Below are positions 1 to 5,827 of a DNA stretch of 5,827 nt, piece by piece. The notes under the pieces were generated by a model. The model ran no database searches. It was not told where the DNA came from and saw nothing but the letters and a program-made list of their open reading frames with translations. Each line of letters begins with the position of its first letter. Position 1 is the stretch's first letter. Source of the stretch: a virus (lineage: Duplodnaviria; Heunggongvirae; Uroviricota; Caudoviricetes). Location of the stretch: positions 1 through 5,827 of the IMG/VR virus record IMGVR_UViG_2585427710_000003; one strand, written 5' to 3'. The position numbers and the translations under genes were made by a program.

Positions 1-621
1 CACACCTGGTTTCTGGCTGGCGAAGGTGAATCCCGGGTAACCGAAGAGCGGCCAGTAAAATCTGAAGCACAGGATATGCTGACCGGGGAGGTCGAACAAA
101 AAGTTACCGCAGACATGATGATTGAGTTTATCGGTCAGGATGGGGCTAAAACGTGTGAGGAACTGGCGGGTAAGTTCGGTGTTAGCATTCGCAAGGTTGC
201 TTCCACGTTGGCGGTCGTAACAGCAACGGGGCGCCTGGCACGCGTAAATCAGAACGGTAAATTTCGTTACTGCATACCGGGCGCTGATTTACCGGCAGAG
301 CCGGAAGCTGCATCCGTAGCGGAAACCGATGGTAAAGCCTTTCCTCAGCCAACAGGTGTTGCGTTACCAGTCCAGGAAACGACGACACAGGAAGAAATGA
401 AAACAGAAATCGTGGAAGACATTGTGAAGTTACAGCCATCGGTCACCGAAACGAAAGCAGATGACCTGATTCTACCATCGCTGCATGTGGCTAACCGCGA
501 GCTGCGCCGGGCAAAAGGTCAGGTTCAGAAGTGGGAGCGTGTCTACGCCGCGCTGCGGGAACTGAACAAACACAGGGATATTCTCCGGGATATTACCGCC
601 ACCAGAGAGCTGCTGCGGTGA
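1..621 (+). CDS. Phage hypothetical protein, 5'-truncated by the window edge; winged-helix-like segment followed by a charged, probably coiled-coil C-terminus
   Basis: The reading frame is open from base 1 (no stop before the first ATG at 76) and ends at TGA 619-621. The translation has an HTH-like stretch (EFIGQDGAKTCEELAGKFGVSIRKVASTL) and a Glu/Lys/Arg-rich tail. The stop overlaps a possible GTG start of the next ORF. Function is unknown; the replication-module neighbourhood is inferred from position only. Confidence 0.55.
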   Translation, partial: HTWFLAGEGESRVTEERPVKSEAQDMLTGEVEQKVTADMMIEFIGQDGAKTCEELAGKFGVSIRKVASTLAVVTATGRLARVNQNGKFRYCIPGADLPAEPEAASVAETDGKAFPQPTGVALPVQETTTQEEMKTEIVEDIVKLQPSVTETKADDLILPSLHVANRELRRAKGQVQKWERVYAALRELNKHRDILRDITATRELLR

Positions 622-653
622 GTGGCTGGAAGAAGTGGCGCTGGGCGGAAATT

Positions 654-935
654 ATGATACTCCGGCAGTGTGCGGGAACGATGACAGTCGAAAGCATCGG
701 CAGTCTGATTGGCCGTAGTGGGGCTGCCGTCAGGACGAAAGCGCGGGAACTGGGTATCTGCATGATGTTACGGGGTGATTATCACCAGTCAGCCAAATGT
801 TCACAGCGTGATATTGAGCTGGCGCGGCAACTGCATCAGCGTGGCGTACCCCGACGGGAAATTGCCGAAAAGTTTGGGATGAAGTTGGGCGCAGTGAATA
901 ACTACGTTTATTTCGACAGGAGGGTTCAGGCGTGA
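654..935 (+). CDS. Small phage protein with two HTH-like segments (hypothetical)
   Basis: The track ORF 531..935 overlaps the upstream gene by about 90 nt, so an internal start is more likely: ATG 654, or GTG 618 overlapping the upstream TGA (GTGA). Translation from 654 contains SIGSLIGRSGAAVRTKARELGI and RREIAEKFGMKLGAVNNYV, both helix-turn-helix-like. It ends at TGA 933-935, overlapping the GTG start of the next gene. Confidence 0.45.
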   Translation: MILRQCAGTMTVESIGSLIGRSGAAVRTKARELGICMMLRGDYHQSAKCSQRDIELARQLHQRGVPRREIAEKFGMKLGAVNNYVYFDRRVQA

Positions 936-1237
936 GGGTGAGAATTTATATCGCCGGTCCGATGACGGGATATGAAAATTTCAACCGTGAGGCGTTTCAC
1001 AAGGCGGAAGAAGCACTGAAACAGGAAGGGCATACCGTATTAAATCCCGCAGTACTTCCGGACGGGCTGACTCAGCCACATTACATGGATATTTGCATGG
1101 CAATGATTCGTTGTGTGGATGCGGTTTATATGCTGGAAGGCTGGCAGCGGTCGGCAGGCGCTAAGGCAGAGCTGGCACTGGCGGAGAAACTGGGGCATGC
1201 AGTTATTTTCCAGGAGGCAACCAGTGAGCGAAATTAA
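932..1237 (+). CDS. DUF4406 / nucleoside 2-deoxyribosyltransferase-like protein
   Basis: GTG start at 932 (alternative GTG at 938) with AGGAGG at 917-922. The N-terminus RIYIAGPMTGYENFNREAF matches from memory the hallmark start of DUF4406 proteins common in prophages. Stop is TAA 1235-1237. Confidence 0.65.
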   Translation: MRVRIYIAGPMTGYENFNREAFHKAEEALKQEGHTVLNPAVLPDGLTQPHYMDICMAMIRCVDAVYMLEGWQRSAGAKAELALAEKLGHAVIFQEATSERN

Positions 1238-1247
1238 TTACCAGGAA
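1224..1247 (+). repeat. 24-bp copy of the 5' end of the 171-aa gene (21/24 identical to 1733-1756); encodes a vestigial start VSEINYQE...
   Basis: GTGAGCGAAATTAATTACCAGGAA at 1224-1247 versus ATGAGCGAGATTAATTATCAGGAA at 1733-1756. Flanks on both sides are unrelated. Compared directly in the sequence. Confidence 0.7.
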
Positions 1248-1384
1248 CTACGGCAGGTGAAAGAGAAAGCATAATCCAGAACTGAATAATTAAAATCAGC
1301 ACTGTAAATAAAATTTAATCCTTAACCGGAGGGATTCCTGCACCCTCAGAACATCAGGAGACCGCCCGGCAGGGCGGTAGTGAA

Positions 1385-1567
1385 ATGCGAAAGTTCAAAA
1401 TAATTATTGAAACGGGAATCGCCGGTGGAGATTCCGAGGATGAATTCGAAGTGAATGATGATGCGACGCCTGATGAAATTCATAACGAAGCAAAAGAAAT
1501 TTTCTTTAACTACTGCAATTACTCATATCACGAAATAAAAGACGAAGAGGAAGAACAAAATGGCTGA
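1385..1567 (+). CDS. Small, highly acidic protein (60 aa; 18 Asp/Glu against 5 Lys/Arg); candidate DNA-mimic or anti-defence accessory protein
   Basis: ATG at 1385 is preceded by AGGAG (1356-1360), then a CCGCCC-GGCA-GGGCGG hairpin (1362-1377). Composition is strongly acidic with a C-terminal DEEEEQ. The stop TGA 1565-1567 overlaps the next ATG. It lies in an AT-rich segment that differs from its flanks. Confidence 0.5.
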   Translation: MRKFKIIIETGIAGGDSEDEFEVNDDATPDEIHNEAKEIFFNYCNYSYHEIKDEEEEQNG

Positions 1568-1736
1568 TTTTGGTTCAACTAAATACAACGTCAGTTTTGA
1601 AGAATGGCATGAACTGTTAATGGACTATGCAGAGTTACGTGGTGGAAGTGCCGCCGATGCTGAAGCATGGCGTGATGACTATGAAGCAGGAAAAACTCCG
1701 GTCGAAGCATATTGTGATGAGTGGGGCGATGAATGA
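1560..1736 (+). CDS. Second small acidic protein (58 aa, MADFGSTKYNVSFEEWHELLMDYAELRGGSAADAEAWRDDYEAGKTPVEAYCDEWGDE); below the length cut-off of the supplied ORF track
   Basis: ATG 1560 overlaps the stop of the previous ORF (ATGGCTGA), and its own stop TGA 1734-1736 overlaps ATG 1733 of the next gene (ATGA). It has 16 Asp/Glu against 4 Lys/Arg. The coupling on both sides supports translation. Confidence 0.45.
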   Translation: MADFGSTKYNVSFEEWHELLMDYAELRGGSAADAEAWRDDYEAGKTPVEAYCDEWGDE

Positions 1737-2248
1737 GCGAGATTAATTATCAGGAAGGGCATGAAACGGCAGGGCAGGCAAAACCAGTGGCATGGCGATA
1801 TCGCTACGTGAAAAAAGACGTTACAGACTTTCAGGGGAAGCAGTGGGCTGGTGACTGGAAATATGTACCGACAAAAGAGGATTGTAACGACAGGCCGAAC
1901 TATGAAATTCAGGCCTTATTCATCGGCCCGCCAGTCCCGGTGACATCAGAAGGACTGGTTAAAGCTGTGCGCTTTTATGAACAGGTAAAGCGTGAGAATC
2001 CGCCAGTCGAAACAGGAGCATGGAAGGATGCTGTTGACTGGGTGCTCAGAGAGGCCTGCTGTGCTGCCATTCTGGGTAAAGCCGACAATCCACCAGCATC
2101 CGGCAATCAGGTTAGCGAATTAGCAATGTGGGTTAAACGGCTGGTCAGCCAACTGAAAAAAGCGAAGCCGGACTGCAAATTACCGGATAAGGCGATGGAC
2201 TACCTGAAGCGAAACGGACTGATAAACGAGGAGAATATTTTACGATGA
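1733..2248 (+). CDS. Hypothetical phage protein (171 aa)
   Basis: ATG start coupled to the upstream ORF, 171 codons with balanced composition. Its first 8 codons are duplicated at 1224-1247. Stop TGA 2246-2248 overlaps ATG 2245 of a micro-ORF. No family recognised. Confidence 0.6.
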   Translation: MSEINYQEGHETAGQAKPVAWRYRYVKKDVTDFQGKQWAGDWKYVPTKEDCNDRPNYEIQALFIGPPVPVTSEGLVKAVRFYEQVKRENPPVETGAWKDAVDWVLREACCAAILGKADNPPASGNQVSELAMWVKRLVSQLKKAKPDCKLPDKAMDYLKRNGLINEENILR

Positions 2249-2328
2249 CCTGGCCTGAAGCGTTCATAACGGTAGGAATTGCAATGGCGGTGGCGCTGGT
2301 GGTGTATTCGATTTGCCGCTGGGGATAA
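2245..2328 (+). CDS. Possible 27-aa hydrophobic micro-protein (MTWPEAFITVGIAMAVALVVYSICRWG)
   Basis: ATG 2245 overlaps the stop of the 171-aa gene (ATGA). The peptide has a single predicted transmembrane-like hydrophobic core and ends at TAA 2326-2328. It is too short to judge by statistics; the coupling is the only support. Confidence 0.3.
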   Translation: MTWPEAFITVGIAMAVALVVYSICRWG

Positions 2329-2335
2329 AAACGGT

Positions 2336-2363
2336 TTGCGGGGAAAGAAGAGTTAAGTAGAAT
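2336..2363 (+). promoter_or_regulatory. Candidate promoter for the hok/mok mRNA (-35 TTGCGG 2336-2341, 16-bp spacer, -10 TAGAAT 2358-2363)
   Basis: Sigma70-like hexamers with correct spacing lie just upstream of a sequence (GGTGCTTGAGGCTGTCTGCC, from about 2371) that resembles the 5' end of plasmid R1 hok mRNA as I recall it. Confidence 0.4.
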
Positions 2364-2424
2364 TGCTGCGGGTGCTTGAGGCTGTCTGCCTCGGGCATGC
2401 CGCCGTAAGGCAGACAGAGAAAAG

Positions 2425-2490
2425 CCCCAGTTAACATTATGCGTCCGGCAGGACGCTTAACATTAATCTGAGGCCATATCTATGACTTGC
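2425..2490 (-). ncRNA. sok: Sok-like antisense RNA (antitoxin of the hok/mok type I TA locus); ends approximate
   Basis: Minus strand has -35 TTGCCT (complement of 2520-2525), a 17-bp spacer and -10 TAATCT (complement of 2497-2502), which would start a transcript near 2490. That transcript is antisense to the mok SD and start (2468-2484) and contains the GCGTCC-GGCA-GGACGC hairpin (2441-2456). This matches the known hok/sok arrangement. Confidence 0.4.
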
Positions 2491-2694
2491 ACACTTAGAT
2501 TAGCCTCTTATGCGCCGAAAGGCAAGGAGCAGCAGGCTATGAAGCAGCAAAAGGCGATGCTAATCGCCCTGATCGTCATCTGTATTACCGTCGTTGTAAC
2601 GGTACTGGTAACGAGGAAAGACCTCTGCGAGGTACGAATCCGAACCGGCCAGACGGAGGTCGCTGTCTTCACAGCTTACGAACCTGAGGAGTAA
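2482..2694 (+). CDS. mok: Mok-like leader reading frame (70 aa), in frame with hok and sharing its stop
   Basis: ATG 2482 has GAGG about 9 nt upstream. The ORF runs in frame into the hok ORF, as I recall chromosomal mok/hok pairs do. The sok target would cover its start. Confidence 0.5.
   Translation: MTCTLRLASYAPKGKEQQAMKQQKAMLIALIVICITVVVTVLVTRKDLCEVRIRTGQTEVAVFTAYEPEE
2497..2525 (-). promoter_or_regulatory. Candidate sok promoter on the minus strand, inside the mok coding region
   Basis: Reverse complement of 2497-2525 reads TTGCCT-17 bp-TAATCT. The position inside mok and the orientation toward the mok start match known hok/sok loci. Confidence 0.4.
2539..2694 (+). CDS. hok: Hok/Gef-family type I toxin (51 aa, MKQQKAMLIALIVICITVVVTVLVTRKDLCEVRIRTGQTEVAVFTAYEPEE)
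   Basis: ATG 2539 with AAGGAG at 2524-2529. The translation has the Hok/Gef signature: N-terminal transmembrane helix, TRKDLCEV, and a ...EVAVFTAYE... tail. From memory it is closest to HokD(RelF)/HokC(Gef). The flanking mRNA elements (leader, mok, terminator) are all present. Confidence 0.9.
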   Translation: MKQQKAMLIALIVICITVVVTVLVTRKDLCEVRIRTGQTEVAVFTAYEPEE

Positions 2695-2762
2695 GAGACC
2701 AGGCGGGGGAGAAATCCCTCGCCACCTCTGATGTGTCAGGCATCCTCAACGCACCCGCACTT

Positions 2763-2790
2763 AACCCGTTTCGGCGGGTTTTGTTTTTTC
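2763..2790 (+). terminator. Rho-independent terminator of the hok mRNA
   Basis: AACCCG (2763-2768) pairs with CGGGTT (2775-2780), followed by TTGTTTTTT (2781-2789). It sits about 70 nt after the hok stop. Confidence 0.7.
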
Positions 2791-2860
2791 CTGGCATTCT
2801 GGTTTACAATTCGCACGCCAGCCTGAACAACTGGCACCTGCTGCGTCACCGGAGAACCCG

Positions 2861-3133
2861 ATGGCGCAACATATAAAATCCCACAATTCTGAAGCCGTCC
2901 CGGCCATTAAGCGGGGGCGGCATTCGCACGTATTTAAAACCGACTGGTACCAGCATCCCCCCTGCACTGAAGAACAGGCCGAATGGCTGATTCAGTGTTA
3001 CCGCAGGCGCGGATACGAGGTTAAGAAAGCCATCAGCCTCGATTATCGTCACTGGATAATCTCTGTCAGGCTCCCTTATTCCGAACATCCACCGCGTCCG
3101 TCCCGCACATTCCAGCAACGTATCTGGAGGTAA
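2861..3133 (+). CDS. Hypothetical phage protein (90 aa)
   Basis: ATG 2861 with GGAGA at 2851-2855. Stop TAA 3131-3133 lies 1 nt before the GTG start of the DUF968-like gene, which implies co-translation. A minus-strand ORF of similar size overlaps it but has no start context. Confidence 0.5.
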   Translation: MAQHIKSHNSEAVPAIKRGRHSHVFKTDWYQHPPCTEEQAEWLIQCYRRRGYEVKKAISLDYRHWIISVRLPYSEHPPRPSRTFQQRIWR

Positions 3134-3134
3134 C

Positions 3135-4184
3135 GTGCGGGTATTACTTCGACCTGTTCTGGTGCCGGAACTTGGCCTGGTGGTCCTTAAGCCCGGACGC
3201 GAATCACTGCCTGTTTTTCATTGCGGCAGGGTGCTGGTGGAGCCGGAACCGAAAAACATGCGCGGTCTGCCGTCCGGAGTCGTTCCTGCCGTTCGCCAGC
3301 CGCTGGCAGAGGATAAAACATTACTGCCATTTTTCTGCGATGAGCGGGTTATTCGTGCAGCAGGTGGTGCAGGTGCACTGTCTGACTGGTTATTACGTCA
3401 CGTGAAATCCTGCCAGTGGCCACACGGCGATTATCATCACAGCGAAACCGTCATTCACCGTTATGGTACCGGCGCGATGGTGTTGTGCTGGCACTGTGAC
3501 AACCAGCTGCGCGACCAGACATCAGAATCACTCGATCAACTTGCTCAGCAGAATCTGGTTGCCTGGATGATTGACGTCATCCGTCACGCAATAAGCGGTA
3601 CGCAGGAGAGGGAGTTATCGCTGGCCGAATTATCCTGGTGGGCGGCCTGCAATCAGGTGGTGGATGCACTACCTGAGGCAGTAGCGCGTTGTTCGCTGGG
3701 ATTACCAGCGGAAAAAATCCGCTCCGTATACCGTGAGAGTGACATCGTACCGGGAGAACAGACAGCCATCAGCATACTGAAGCAGCGCACAAAAAATATT
3801 GCGCTGCCACTTCACGTCCACCAGCAACAAAATCCACCACAGAAAAAAACGGTTGTCAGTATCGCCGTTGATCCGGAGTCTCCTGAATCGTTCATGAGGC
3901 GGCCTAAATGTCGCCGTTGGGTTAATGAGAAATACACGCGCTGGGTAAAGACACAGCCGTGTGCGTGTTGTGGTAAGCCAGCTGACGATCCGCATCACCT
4001 GATTGGTCATGGTCAGGGGGGAATGGGAACAAAGGCCCACGATATTTTCACGCTACCGTTGTGCCGGGAGCACCACAACGAACTTCATGCAGACCCGCAG
4101 GAGTTTGAGAAAAAGTACGGCTCTCAGATTGAGTTAATTTTTCGTTTTCTTGATCACGCCTTTGCGACTGGCGTGCTCGGGTAA
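3135..4184 (+). CDS. DUF968-like prophage protein with a C-terminal HNH/His-Me-finger-like Cys/His motif
   Basis: GTG 3135 with GGAGG at 3126-3130; an internal ATG at 3258 is an alternative start. The C-terminus reads CACCGKPADDPHHLIGHGQGG...LPLCREHHNELH, and there is an earlier C..WHCDN cluster. From memory this resembles the DUF968 proteins found next to Q in E. coli cryptic prophages. Confidence 0.75.
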   Translation: MRVLLRPVLVPELGLVVLKPGRESLPVFHCGRVLVEPEPKNMRGLPSGVVPAVRQPLAEDKTLLPFFCDERVIRAAGGAGALSDWLLRHVKSCQWPHGDYHHSETVIHRYGTGAMVLCWHCDNQLRDQTSESLDQLAQQNLVAWMIDVIRHAISGTQERELSLAELSWWAACNQVVDALPEAVARCSLGLPAEKIRSVYRESDIVPGEQTAISILKQRTKNIALPLHVHQQQNPPQKKTVVSIAVDPESPESFMRRPKCRRWVNEKYTRWVKTQPCACCGKPADDPHHLIGHGQGGMGTKAHDIFTLPLCREHHNELHADPQEFEKKYGSQIELIFRFLDHAFATGVLG

Positions 4185-4196
4185 AAGAGGTGACTG

Positions 4197-4556
4197 ATGC
4201 TCATAGATTTGGTTTTACCTTACCCGCCGACGGTGAACACTTACTGGCGACGCCGTGGCAGCACATATTTTGTATCAAAAGCCGGGGAGCGTTATCGCCG
4301 GGCAGTGGCGCTTATTGTTCGCCAGCAGCGGCTGAAATTAAGCCTGTCCGGACGGCTGGCAATAAAAATTATTGCAGAGCCACCGGATAAGCGCCGCCGT
4401 GACCTGGACAATATTCTGAAAGCACCGCTGGATGCGCTGACGCACGCGGGGTTGTTAATGGACGATGAGCAGTTTGATGAAATCAATATTGTACGTGGCA
4501 AGCCAGTATCTGGTGGACGGCTGGAGATAAAAATTACAGAGGTGGGGTGTGCATGA
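4197..4556 (+). CDS. rusA: RusA-family Holliday-junction resolvase
   Basis: ATG 4197 with AAAGAGG at 4184-4190. The 119-aa translation has the RusA hallmarks YPPTVNTYWR, DKRRRDLDN and GGRLEIKITE. Its position immediately upstream of Q is typical of lambdoid phages. Confidence 0.85.
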   Translation: MLIDLVLPYPPTVNTYWRRRGSTYFVSKAGERYRRAVALIVRQQRLKLSLSGRLAIKIIAEPPDKRRRDLDNILKAPLDALTHAGLLMDDEQFDEINIVRGKPVSGGRLEIKITEVGCA

Positions 4557-5242
4557 ATAACCAGTATTTACAGTTTGTTCGTGAGCAACTCATGATTGCC
4601 ACTGCGGATCTCAGTGGGGCGACAAAAGGTCAACTGGAAGCCTGTCAGGAAAATGCCCTGTTCGATACAGGGCGTTACAGACGCAAAAAAATTCGTTACC
4701 GCGATGAGGTAACCGGAAAAATGATCACGCGGGATAATCCCCCAATCCCGGGTAAACAATCACTGGCGAAAGGCTCATCAATTGCCCTGGTCAGTCCTGT
4801 TGAGTTTGCAACATCATCGTGGCGGCGTACCCTTCTGGAACTGGAAGAACATCAGAAGGCGTGGTTGTTGTGGTGTTATGGCGGAAACATTTGCTGGGAG
4901 CATCAGATCGCGATAACGCAGTGGGTGTGGAATGAATTTAAAACTCAGTCTGGTACCAGAAAAATTGCAGTGAAAACGCTGGAGCGTGTGAAGAAGTTGA
5001 TCTGGCTGGCGGCACAGGATGTCAGAGGATGGGTTACCGGGTGTGAGGTCTACCAGAGACAGGAGCTTGCCAGACTGTGTGGAGTTAAGCCTGATAACTG
5101 GAGCCATAATTATGCGAACTACTGGCGTGAGATGTGCGATATTTTTAAGCGCCTCGATAGAGAATCCTTGATTTGCTCCGTGAAAATAAGAGCGCAACAA
5201 AAAGCGACCTTTTCACGACGAGATATTGCAAAAGTCAATTAA
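4553..5242 (+). CDS. Q-like late-gene antiterminator (putative)
   Basis: ATG 4553 overlaps the rusA stop (ATGA) with GAGGTGG at 4540-4546; the track start at 4547 is a GTG. The 229-aa ORF sits between rusA and a short leader with an intrinsic terminator, the canonical position of Q. The assignment is mainly by synteny; I do not recognise the sequence with certainty. Confidence 0.6.
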   Translation: MNNQYLQFVREQLMIATADLSGATKGQLEACQENALFDTGRYRRKKIRYRDEVTGKMITRDNPPIPGKQSLAKGSSIALVSPVEFATSSWRRTLLELEEHQKAWLLWCYGGNICWEHQIAITQWVWNEFKTQSGTRKIAVKTLERVKKLIWLAAQDVRGWVTGCEVYQRQELARLCGVKPDNWSHNYANYWREMCDIFKRLDRESLICSVKIRAQQKATFSRRDIAKVN

Positions 5243-5303
5243 ATCGCGTATGTTTCGTATAAATCTGATATTTTGCCTATTTTGTACGCGATGACAAAAT
5301 AAG
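5243..5303 (+). promoter_or_regulatory. Candidate late promoter (pR'-like) and Q-utilisation region
   Basis: AT-rich stretch between the Q stop and the terminator, with a -10-like TATAAA at 5258-5263 and a weak -35. Q-dependent late promoters typically have a poor -35 and a short terminated leader. This is inference only. Confidence 0.3.
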
Positions 5304-5331
5304 AAAAAAACTGCCGCCAGGCGGTTTTTTT
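5304..5331 (+). terminator. Intrinsic terminator (tR'-like), symmetric with an A-tract and a T-tract, so possibly bidirectional
   Basis: AAAAAAA (5304-5310), then a GC hairpin CCGC-CAG-GCGG (5314-5324), then TTTTTTT (5325-5331). Confidence 0.7.
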
Positions 5332-5454
5332 ATGTCCGAAAATCGCGTCAGTACAGTAAACGCGCTGGCGGCGGTGAATACCGGTCTTTCAGCTTGCTGG
5401 CTTTTTCGACAAGAGTTATTGGTGTGTCACGTTAACCGAAAAAGGGAAAAAGAC

Positions 5455-5652
5455 ATGCTGAAACAGCGGGATATGACAGAAACCGCCAGAGCAGTTTTTA
5501 ATGAATTAAGTGCCACCGAACCGGCGACAGTCGGGGAGATTGCACAGAATACGTACCTTTCACGCGAACGCTGCCAGCTAATACTGACCCAGCTTGTTAT
5601 GGCGGGTCTGGCAGACTATCAGTTTGGTTGTTACAGACGCCTTCAGTCCTGA
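5455..5652 (+). CDS. Small winged-helix protein (65 aa), PapI/FaeA-like putative regulator; cargo gene downstream of the late terminator
   Basis: ATG 5455 has AAGGGA at 5442-5447. The track ORF starts at ATG 5332, directly abutting the terminator T-tract with no SD, so the internal start is preferred. The translation ...TVGEIAQNTYLSRERCQLILTQLVMAGLA... looks like a recognition helix followed by a wing. Confidence 0.5.
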   Translation: MLKQRDMTETARAVFNELSATEPATVGEIAQNTYLSRERCQLILTQLVMAGLADYQFGCYRRLQS

Positions 5653-5667
5653 AGGCTTTTTTATTTG
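5639..5667 (+). terminator. Rho-independent terminator overlapping the stop of the small wHTH gene
   Basis: GCCTTCA (5639-5645) pairs with TGAAGGC (5650-5656) around a GTCC loop, followed by TTTTTTATTT (5657-5666). The stop codon TGA 5650-5652 is inside the stem. Confidence 0.7.
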
Positions 5668-5827
5668 TGGTAAATGGGCGGCTGGTGGGGGTTAGGGGCA
5701 CTCACCAGCCATCTGCTCATGCGTTGGGGTCACAAGCAAACCTCAGGCCCATCTGCTTTGCGCAAAAGCGGTATGAGCCTATCAGAGACAGGCTTAATGA
5801 TCCATGTTTAATACTGTAAAAATATCC

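Follow-up and report, generated by a model that had tools for sequence, protein, structure and literature searches.

A predicted YdfU-type (DUF968) HNH nuclease and its translationally coupled small neighbour upstream of rusA and Q in a Shiga-toxin-type prophage

Introduction

[quoted passage not shown] Its N-terminus is a disordered basic tail and not a folded domain (PMC4330346). Gp16 of the staphylococcal phage ΦNM1, characterised in 2026, is a nickase that binds RecA and is stimulated by it; the zinc-finger mutations C148A, C181A, and H184A abolish the growth inhibition that it causes, while H185A/H189A relieve it in part (PMC12817073). The DUF968 and DUF1364 families have been placed in group 7 of the His-Me finger nucleases by work that named YdfU, noted RusA and Q among the neighbouring genes, and reported fusions of other DUF968-family members to ERF, Rad52, or RusA (Jablonska et al. 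2017, PMC5714182). YbcO of DLP12 and phage 82 (DUF1364, PDB 3g27) is a bare 96-aa HNH domain, and λ NinG/Rap belongs to a different Pfam family; neither carries the N-terminal domain of YdfU.

Here we compare with these systems a pair of genes found in a 5,827-nucleotide stretch of Caudoviricetes DNA (IMG/VR record IMGVR_UViG_2585427710_000003, positions 1 to 5,827), which we refer to as the window. The second gene of the pair encodes a DUF968 protein that is 85% identical to YdfU of the E. coli K-12 Qin prophage over all 349 aa. This gene and ydfU are alike in having a GTG start and Q as a neighbour; in Qin, rem lies 5' of ydfU and rusA is missing, whereas the window has rusA and a Stx-phage context. 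Most of what we find is known biology.

Results

The two genes are a delayed-early 'nin region' pair of a Stx2-type lambdoid prophage, located between a hok/sok cassette and rusA-Q (Table 1). Both open reading frames were found exactly where the original prediction had placed them, with family matches and conservation well above anything chance would produce, and its assignment of the next two downstream genes as rusA and Q agrees with the Pfam matches. On the upstream side, the sok RNA (2370-2544; Rfam RF01794, 114.8 bits) and the Hok reading frame, which ends at 2694 (Pfam HOK_GEF, E=4e-23), are followed at 2763-2790 by a terminator-like hairpin and T-run, the intrinsic terminator of the hok region. 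No promoter was detected between this terminator and the small gene, and transcription of both genes is assumed to be read-through from the early operon. Downstream, rusA begins 12 nt past the DUF968 stop codon, and the Q start used in related RefSeq records (4553) produces a 4-nt overlap with the rusA stop.

Table 1. Features of the gene pair and its surroundings (positions in the window)
Feature	Position	Strand	Remarks
hok/sok type I toxin-antitoxin cassette	2370..2790	+	directly 5' of the small gene
Shine-Dalgarno (GGAG) of the small gene	2851..2854	+	6 nt 5' of the ATG; read from the sequence
Small gene	2861..3133	+	ATG start, 90 aa; PHROG 1212
Coupling junction GGAGG-TAA-C-GTG	3126..3137	+	sequence read; Shine-Dalgarno, stop, 1-nt spacer, start
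DUF968 protein gene	3135..4184	+	GTG start, 349 aa
DUF968 N-terminal domain, aa 1-222	3135..3800	+	mixed α/β fold; not NinB/Orf-like
N-domain Cys/His site	3411..3497	+	C93-Q94 ... Y-[C/H]103-H104 ... β-hairpin ... C118-W-x-[C/H]121-D122-N
Interdomain linker, aa 223-244	3801..3866	+	predicted flexible; length varies among homologues
ββα-metal (HNH / His-Me finger) nuclease domain, aa 245-349 and stop codon	3867..4184	+	
HNH motif block	3960..4088	+	C276-A-C-C279, H288, K300, D303, C310, H313, H314, H318; invariant alignment columns
rusA, Holliday-junction resolvase	4197..4556	+	Pfam RusA E=2e-17; relatives annotated RusA
Late antiterminator Q	4547/4553-5242	+	Pfam Phage_antiter_Q E=3e-82

A direct reading of the junction between the two genes (GGAGG at 3126-3130, TAA at 3131-3133, C at 3134, GTG from 3135) bears out the earlier observation that the 90-aa reading frame stops 1 nt before the GTG. 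The final two sense codons of the small gene (TGG AGG) constitute the Shine-Dalgarno sequence of the DUF968 gene, and a junction of the form GGAGGTAA[C/T][G/A]TG is kept in all 87 Escherichia-clade loci. Because the 3' end of the small gene supplies the ribosome-binding site, expression of the putative nuclease is tied to translation of the small gene.

Membership of the downstream protein in the DUF968 family, as originally predicted, was confirmed by a match to Pfam DUF968 (PF06147) of 256.3 bits (E=1.9e-76), against a curated gathering threshold of 27.8 bits; the match spans aa 160-346 and positions 1-171 of the 171 in the model. PHROG 96 ('HNH endonuclease') covers the protein over its full length (E=3e-172). 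The gene is thus the usual predicted HNH nuclease gene of the YdfU type (DUF968) that lambdoid prophages of E. coli carry. The true start had been considered uncertain, on account of an atypical N-terminus. Of 80 distant loci in other Enterobacterales, 77 have a start codon at the position matching residue 1 (GTG in 41, ATG in 32, and TTG in 4), and the alignment of distant homologues shows a conserved N-terminal motif, MxxLLxP..LG.V.LKPG; on this comparison the GTG start can be regarded as settled, and the earlier doubt was misplaced.

The C-terminal domain has the ββα-metal fold of the His-Me finger / HNH superfamily in an AF2 model of the protein (pLDDT 84); among solved structures it comes closest to P1 Ref (PDB 3plw) and YbcO (PDB 3g27). 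Both of the Cys/His clusters recognised in the original prediction, the C-terminal one (C276xxC279, H287 H288, H292, C310, H313 H314, H318) and an earlier one (C93, H103/H104, C118, C121), are present and are conserved in distant homologues. Its reading of the C-terminal cluster as an HNH/His-Me finger motif likewise holds, given the fold and the invariance of H288, H314, and H318; these residues align with H157, H185, and H189 of Gp16 and correspond to the catalytic histidine and the helix metal-ligand His/Asn positions. From the conserved positions, we predict that C276/C279 and C310/H313 form a CCCH zinc site, that H288, at the end of β1, is the catalytic histidine, and that H288, D303, H314, and H318 make up the full catalytic set.

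A characterised homologue of this domain is found in ΦNM1 Gp16, to which hhalign aligned the HNH region alone (probability 94-95%, 36-38% identity). A CxxC...H...CREHHNExH motif is common to both proteins, with CREHHNELH in the DUF968 protein and CREHHNEQH in Gp16. Residues C145, C148, H157, C181, H184, H185, and H189 of Gp16 have residue-for-residue matches in the DUF968 protein, in which all six mutated residues are kept. The genes are also alike in setting: each is an early phage gene of a replication/recombination module with RusA nearby. The resemblance ends at the N-terminal domain, which is NinB/Orf-like in Gp16 and unrelated in the DUF968 protein (220 aa). Gp16 belongs to Pfam HNHc_6 (PF16784) and also scores on the DUF968 model; the window protein reaches 22.7 bits on HNHc_6, over the HNH part only, below the threshold of 26.6. 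No similarity was found between the DUF968 protein and YbcN (NinB family), and the NinB-like N-terminal domain that characterises HNHc_6 is absent. P1 Ref, although related in fold, was not picked up by the DUF968 sequence-profile search.

No relative of the N-terminal ~220 aa was detectable among solved structures, and the full-length DUF968 profile yielded no matches to PDB sequences. Within this domain, distant homologues show little or no variation at C93, Q94, C118, W119, and D122, and the predicted secondary structure of the Cys/His site is β105-110, β113-118, and α119-125. The site is probably a structural zinc site, and the domain as a whole may provide recognition of DNA or of a partner. 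Between the two domains, residues 224-243 have pLDDT values below 50, and the same stretch is indel-rich in the homologue alignment. Apparent fusions of the N-terminal domain to tail fibre, tail tip, capsid, or Q proteins were not accepted as architectures, since they resemble chimeras left by deletions in prophages that have decayed.

One full-length homologue, P1 PdcB (26% identity, 95% coverage), shares the N-domain motif LCWHHDN, but its catalytic histidines are replaced (HITPYIV, CQSCQRDI). PdcB is among some full-length homologues in which the N-terminal domain and the zinc cysteines persist but the catalytic histidines are gone; the family must therefore have a function for which catalysis is not needed. 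The P1 gene is dispensable for plaque formation (PMC10695390). One reading of these homologues is that the DUF968 protein is a non-catalytic regulatory or DNA-binding protein tied to late-gene activation: the gene always stands directly before a late regulator, Q here and lpa in P1, where pdcB is immediately 5' of it, and one member of the family carries a phage transcriptional regulator annotation (PMC5714182). We consider this improbable. The catalytic residues are all invariant in the window protein and in most homologues, which argues for catalysis in that lineage, and a position before Q is common to all nin genes.

Still less probable, in our estimation, is that the gene encodes a selfish homing endonuclease, or a terminase-associated HNH protein like HK97 gp74. 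Phage HNH genes are commonly homing endonucleases or packaging cofactors, and relatives are annotated 'HNH homing endonuclease' in some records; a homing gene, however, is expected to show a sporadic distribution or an intron/intein or insertion-like context, neither of which was observed. In 80 species-level loci the gene keeps a fixed syntenic position in the early operon, ahead of rusA/Q and far away from the terminase. The N-terminal domain is large and conserved, and the gene is near-universal in E. coli prophages: of 5426 complete genomes of the species, 4784 contain the 2.2-kb segment.

The 90-aa reading frame is, as had been proposed, a genuine gene; it is conserved and coupled in translation to DUF968. 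The PHROG 1212 profile matches its product in full (positions 1-66 of 66, on aa 25-90; E=5.1e-36). These residues (2933-3130) make up a 66-aa core with a β-α-β-β arrangement and a basic C-terminal tail, ...PPRPSRTFQQRIWR, homologous to N15 Orf QD1 and Gifsy-2 STM1021.1n. The core is under strong purifying selection (dN/dS = 0.096), all 87 close loci have an unbroken reading frame, and the protein is basic (pI about 10). Escherichia members of PHROG 1212 differ in having an additional 24-26 aa at the N-terminus, an extension that results from the loss of the ancestral Met, whose place Phe25 has taken; in the window it comprises residues 1-24 (2861-2932), is Escherichia-specific, and is weakly constrained. 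A homologue is also present, unannotated, in the rem-ydfU gap of the K-12 Qin prophage (NC_000913.3, 1644306-1644584, minus strand).

Several other identities were rejected. An antisense 90-aa reading frame (2846..3118), the mirror image of the small gene, has a dN/dS of 1.3. Rem is unrelated to the small protein, the true Qin homologue being the one in the rem-ydfU gap. The positional analogues NinE and P1 PdcA, the latter encoded by a 66-aa gene 5' of pdcB, each gave an hhalign probability of 0.2%, and PdcA is unrelated to the small protein. Some RefSeq records name the protein a GIY-YIG nuclease; neither the profile nor the fold of that family was found, and the label appears to be wrong.

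We compared (i) the loci that carry a DUF968 gene with (ii) those that carry the small gene. A small-gene homologue is present in 16 of the 80 species-level DUF968 loci and missing from the other 64, where the gene 5' of DUF968 is KilA-N (40), RusA-like (19), or another. The reverse holds for the Gifsy-type loci: DUF968 is lacking in 79 of 80 that carry the small gene and occurs in only one; there the small gene lies 5' of a RusA-like gene, YbcO, or NinG. Loci of the Citrobacter type have a RusA-like gene between the two. Direct adjacency is confined to the Escherichia and Klebsiella clades, where it is seen in all 158 informative loci. The small gene is not a dedicated partner of DUF968.

These distributions bear on the two-gene unit of the original prediction, a nuclease with a specificity or immunity partner, in which the 90-aa protein would bind the DUF968 nuclease and restrain or target it, in the style of a toxin-antitoxin or colicin-immunity pair. 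Tight translational coupling and the unbroken adjacency in Escherichia and Klebsiella are what such a pair would show, and the conserved C-terminal tail of the small protein is a possible docking peptide. Further, the host is poisoned when the related Gp16 is overexpressed (PMC12817073), and restraint on the DUF968 nuclease would therefore make sense. The obligate co-occurrence of a toxin-immunity or nuclease-inhibitor pair was nevertheless not observed: the co-occurrence check that the prediction itself had named failed on the counts of 16 of 80 DUF968 loci and 1 of 80 Gifsy-type loci, with KilA-N or RusA-like genes upstream instead or intervening. Since coupling between neighbours is the rule for almost every gene of these nin operons, it is by itself no signal. 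Neither protein had a match in PADLOC, and membership in a defence or anti-defence system was rejected. As pairing is not obligate across loci, a nuclease-immunity unit is unlikely and can be set aside.

Slightly better placed, though doubtful, is the idea that the small protein is an accessory to the nuclease of the nin-region slot in general, whichever of DUF968, YbcO, NinG, or a RusA-like protein occupies it, acting for instance by binding DNA, SSB, or RecA. In every sampled clade the gene is directly 5' of, and coupled to, a nuclease gene; it is often 3' of a NinB/DUF1367 recombination mediator, and both the strong selection on its core and the basic charge of its product would fit such a role. 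Yet nearly all lambdoid nin regions have a nuclease of this kind before Q, so that the background of adjacency is high, and the small gene is absent from most DUF968 loci. It precedes a cytosine methyltransferase gene in Erwinia phage 59 and a gene for an RNase_T/Lar protein in N15, and we found no fold or motif in its product indicating binding of DNA or protein.

Discussion

The reading that we favour, and regard as probable, is that of a coupled nin gene pair in which the DUF968 HNH protein nicks or cuts the DNA of recombination and replication, the small gene being a non-dedicated 5' neighbour. We infer that the DUF968 protein is a nuclease whose likeliest job would be to nick or cut DNA in phage recombination and replication, with recombination or replication intermediates as substrates and host RecA possibly helping. 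It may act at a step before the RusA resolvase, the product of the adjacent gene, and, occupying the same genomic slot, it would be the functional counterpart of λ NinG/Rap and DLP12 YbcO. The flexible linker would tie an N-terminal recognition domain to the C-terminal HNH nuclease. Dependence on RecA is not confidently transferable to the DUF968 protein, because its N-terminal domain differs from those of both Ref and Gp16. The small gene, in turn, encodes a basic protein with a folded 66-aa core and is conserved as the 5' neighbour of any nuclease in the slot.

The original prediction held that DUF968 proteins have no assigned function, which is half true: DUF968 has been classed as a His-Me finger family (PMC5714182), PHROGs label the family 'HNH endonuclease', and the homologous HNH domain of Gp16 has been characterised.

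Most E. coli genomes contain the DUF968/YdfU gene, which in Shiga-toxin phages belongs to the early operon and stands a short way 5' of Q, whose antiterminator product turns on stx. The K-12 MG1655 reference annotation misses a conserved 92-aa gene, the homologue of the small gene described here. The link to ΦNM1 Gp16 and P1 Ref provides a testable hypothesis, that of a RecA-assisted nickase feeding RusA. A bolder proposal, which at present we think unlikely, is that PHROG 1212 is a shared subunit of the slot, gating or targeting nucleases on RecA- or SSB-coated intermediates, and that YdfU-type proteins are RecA-assisted nickases driving recombination-dependent replication of Stx prophages; if this were true, Stx prophage induction and toxin yield would be influenced.

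Organization of the locus

The window lies within the early right operon of an E. coli lambdoid prophage of the Stx2 type. A prophage in strain UC4224 matches it with 98.7% identity; there, a DNA methyltransferase, tRNA genes, and stx2AB come after these genes. The original prediction described a small ORF coupled to a DUF968 gene just before rusA and Q, and every detail of that observation was confirmed by the ORF listing, the junction sequence, and the neighboring genes. One nucleotide separates the small-gene stop codon from the start of the DUF968 gene, whose Shine-Dalgarno sequence is formed by the last two sense codons of the small gene. A complete hok/sok type I toxin-antitoxin cassette sits between the small gene and the early genes further upstream, one of which encodes a DUF4406 protein distantly resembling nucleoside 2-deoxyribosyltransferases. 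Because no sigma-70-like promoter was found between the hok/sok terminator and position 2861, genes downstream of the cassette presumably depend on antiterminated read-through.

Positions of features in the window
Feature	Position	Strand	Location and evidence
DUF4406 protein, DUF1627 protein (early genes)	932-1237 and 76-621		upstream
171-aa ORF	1733-2248		no Pfam match
hok/sok cassette	2370-2790		upstream of small gene; Rfam sok (2370-2544), Hok ORF (Pfam HOK_GEF), terminator
Intrinsic terminator of hok/sok	2763-2790
Antisense 90-aa ORF	2846-3118	-	mirror image of small gene, in phase with it
Small gene	2861-3133	+	90-aa ORF, ATG (ORF listing)
Junction GGAGG-TAA-C-GTG	3126-3137	+	read from sequence
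DUF968 gene	3135-4184	+	349-aa ORF, GTG (ORF listing)
rusA	4197-4556		downstream of DUF968 gene
Q			downstream of DUF968 gene, with rusA
106-aa ORF	5332-5652		downstream of Q; weak winged-helix matches to TrmB and HTH_24 (E about 2e-3 to 6e-3), weak PADLOC SWIM_XIII match

The small gene

The 90-aa ORF, a member of PHROG 1212, is a genuine gene. It was intact in 87 of 87 close loci, and the junction to the DUF968 gene was kept. Small-gene clusters number 143 in Escherichia/Shigella (90-92 aa), with 204 more across Enterobacterales (66-68 aa). Outside Escherichia the protein begins at the position of Phe25 (MKKSWFQH...), and the Escherichia forms carry an additional, variable extension of 24-26 aa. 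Among 50 distinct Escherichia alleles, dN/dS was 0.096 for the core (residues 25-90) and 0.53 for the extension. AF2 predicted, with confidence, a β-α-β-β core, followed by a basic C-terminal tail. The antisense ORF, with a dN/dS of 1.3, was dismissed as a shadow ORF.

Most RefSeq/PGAP copies of the small protein are named "hypothetical protein"; the name "GIY-YIG nuclease family protein", found on only some (e.g., WP_032306591.1, at 6462-6734 of related locus L001), was unsupported by Pfam, NCBIfam, or the fold. E. coli K-12 MG1655 encodes an intact 92-aa homologue (73% identity) at NC_000913.3 1644306-1644584 on the minus strand (4307-4585 of locus L003), in a gap between rem and ydfU that bears no annotation in the RefSeq record. 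Its junction to ydfU, GGAGGTAACGTG (TAA-C-GTG), is identical to that of the window, and gene calls on at least 1000 other contigs give exactly this protein.

The invariant C-terminal Trp codon and the Arg or Gly codon that follows (TGG AGG or TGG GGN) overlap the Shine-Dalgarno sequence of the next gene, at 3126-3131 in the window and at the homologous junctions of L005-L011, L039, and L046. Conservation of this Trp may reflect a dual constraint, on coding and on ribosome binding.

The DUF968 protein

An HMM search bore out the DUF968 assignment (Pfam, 256 bits), and PHROG 96 ("HNH endonuclease") covers the full length of the protein. It is 85% identical to K-12 YdfU. When complete E. coli genomes were examined, 4784 of the 5426 contained the 2.2-kb segment. 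With HMMER, a full scan covering 1.8 billion representatives yielded 3201 relatives, about 25 of them full-length (26-58% identity), with alignments mostly beginning at residue 1 or a few residues off. The original prediction had doubted the GTG start. We consider it correct, because start codons align at residue 1 (GTG in 41, ATG in 32, and TTG in 4 of 80 loci from other Enterobacterales) and the N-terminal motif MxxLLxP..LG.V.LKPG is kept among homologues. Many database "proteins" fuse the first 150-270 aa of DUF968 with tail-tip, tail-fibre, or capsid sequences or with Q (P0266, P0305, P0307, P0358, P0292, P0272); these look like deletion scars in decaying prophages, with one breakpoint within the DUF968 gene.

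The AF2 model (27-sequence alignment, mean pLDDT 84) predicts an N-terminal domain to about residue 220 and a C-terminal ββα domain, joined by a linker (224-243) that is disordered. The best PDB sequence for a profile of the C-terminal domain only was YbcO (E=0.056), and the structural comparison of this domain also took in the IscB and Cap5 HNH domains and McrA. The HNH motif proposed originally proved complete, and invariant among close and mid-distance homologues: C276xxC279 with C310/H313 as a CCCH zinc site, then H288, D303, H314, and H318. The earlier Cys/His cluster of that prediction, C93-Q ... [C/H]103-H ... C118-W-x-[C/H]121-D-N, surrounds a modeled β-hairpin and helix; C93, Q94, C118, W119, and D122 are invariant or nearly so, and we infer a structural zinc site. 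No convincing PDB match was found for the N-domain. A NinB/Orf-like domain has been reported for Gram-positive DUF968 proteins (Curtis et al. 2014); for the N-domain here this assignment was rejected, as hhalign against YbcN (NinB family) gave nothing and only the HNH part aligned with Gp16 of Staphylococcus phage ΦNM1.

The HNH reading is thus right, yet not new, because DUF968 and DUF1364 were already placed in His-Me finger group 7, with YdfU and YbcO named and RusA and Q noted as DUF968 neighbors (Jablonska et al. 2017, PMC5714182). Xu et al. (NAR 2026, PMC12817073) showed that the early phage protein Gp16 is a RecA-binding, RecA-stimulated nickase. It suppresses host replication, and the phage requires it to replicate efficiently. 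An HNHc_6 protein in Pfam, it also exceeds the DUF968 threshold. The two HNH domains align with 94-95% hhalign probability and 36-38% identity, pairing CREHHNEQH of Gp16 with CREHHNELH, and all six residues mutated in the Gp16 study are identical here. The best structural match was bacteriophage P1 Ref, described in PMC4330346 as a RecA-dependent HNH nuclease. The N-domain is unlike those of Ref and Gp16.

P1 also encodes PdcB, a nonessential protein (PMC10695390) and full-length YdfU homologue (26% identity), just before lpa (pdcA-pdcB, 1219-2490 of the P1 locus L408). In PdcB the catalytic histidines of the HNH are gone, although its zinc cysteines and N-domain motif remain; related representatives likewise lack these histidines and retain the N-domain. 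The upstream pdcA, at 66 aa, matches the small-gene core in size but is unrelated to it.

Co-occurrence of the small gene and DUF968

The original prediction further proposed a two-gene unit, a nuclease with a specificity or immunity partner. Among 80 DUF968-anchored loci (one genome per species), the gene directly upstream encoded a KilA-N protein in 40, a RusA-like protein in 19, and the small protein in nine; only 16 contained the small gene anywhere. Nearly all upstream genes were equally tightly coupled (e.g., by ATGA overlaps). Viewed from the small gene, DUF968 came directly next in all 158 informative Escherichia and Klebsiella loci, was present in 60 of 75 Citrobacter-type loci, usually with a RusA-like gene between, and occurred in one of 80 Gifsy-type loci. 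From these counts by clade, we therefore conclude that the pairing is lineage-specific synteny and is not obligate; the small protein is unlikely to be a partner dedicated to immunity or specificity. Overall, the HNH reading stood, the start was settled, and the partner unit was not upheld.

A weaker pattern was seen, in which the small gene is the conserved, coupled 5' neighbor of whichever nuclease occupies the slot before rusA/Q. In Gifsy-type loci it has a DUF1367/NinB-like gene on one side, and the gene downstream of it varies among NinG (Gifsy-2, Edwardsiella phage GF-2), YbcO (mEp237, phiES15), a RusA-like gene, a cytosine methyltransferase (Erwinia phage 59), and an RNase_T/Lar protein (N15). 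This adjacency may stem from an accessory function that these loci share, or simply from nin-region mosaicism.

Proposed role

Among analogies with an experimental basis, the closest is a nickase linked to recombination and possibly RecA-assisted. We think it fairly probable that the DUF968 protein is a delayed-early, two-domain nickase or endonuclease, whose HNH domain would nick or cut phage recombination and replication intermediates while the N-domain recognizes DNA or a partner; RusA would resolve junctions downstream of this step. The DUF968 protein would correspond in function to NinG/Rap and YbcO, which occupy this slot in other phages, and the embedded Shine-Dalgarno sequence would couple its translation to that of the small gene. 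Most of what was found here is already in the literature and databases; the worth of the locus lies mainly in a testable link to RecA-dependent nickases, an uncharacterised small-protein family, and a missing K-12 annotation.
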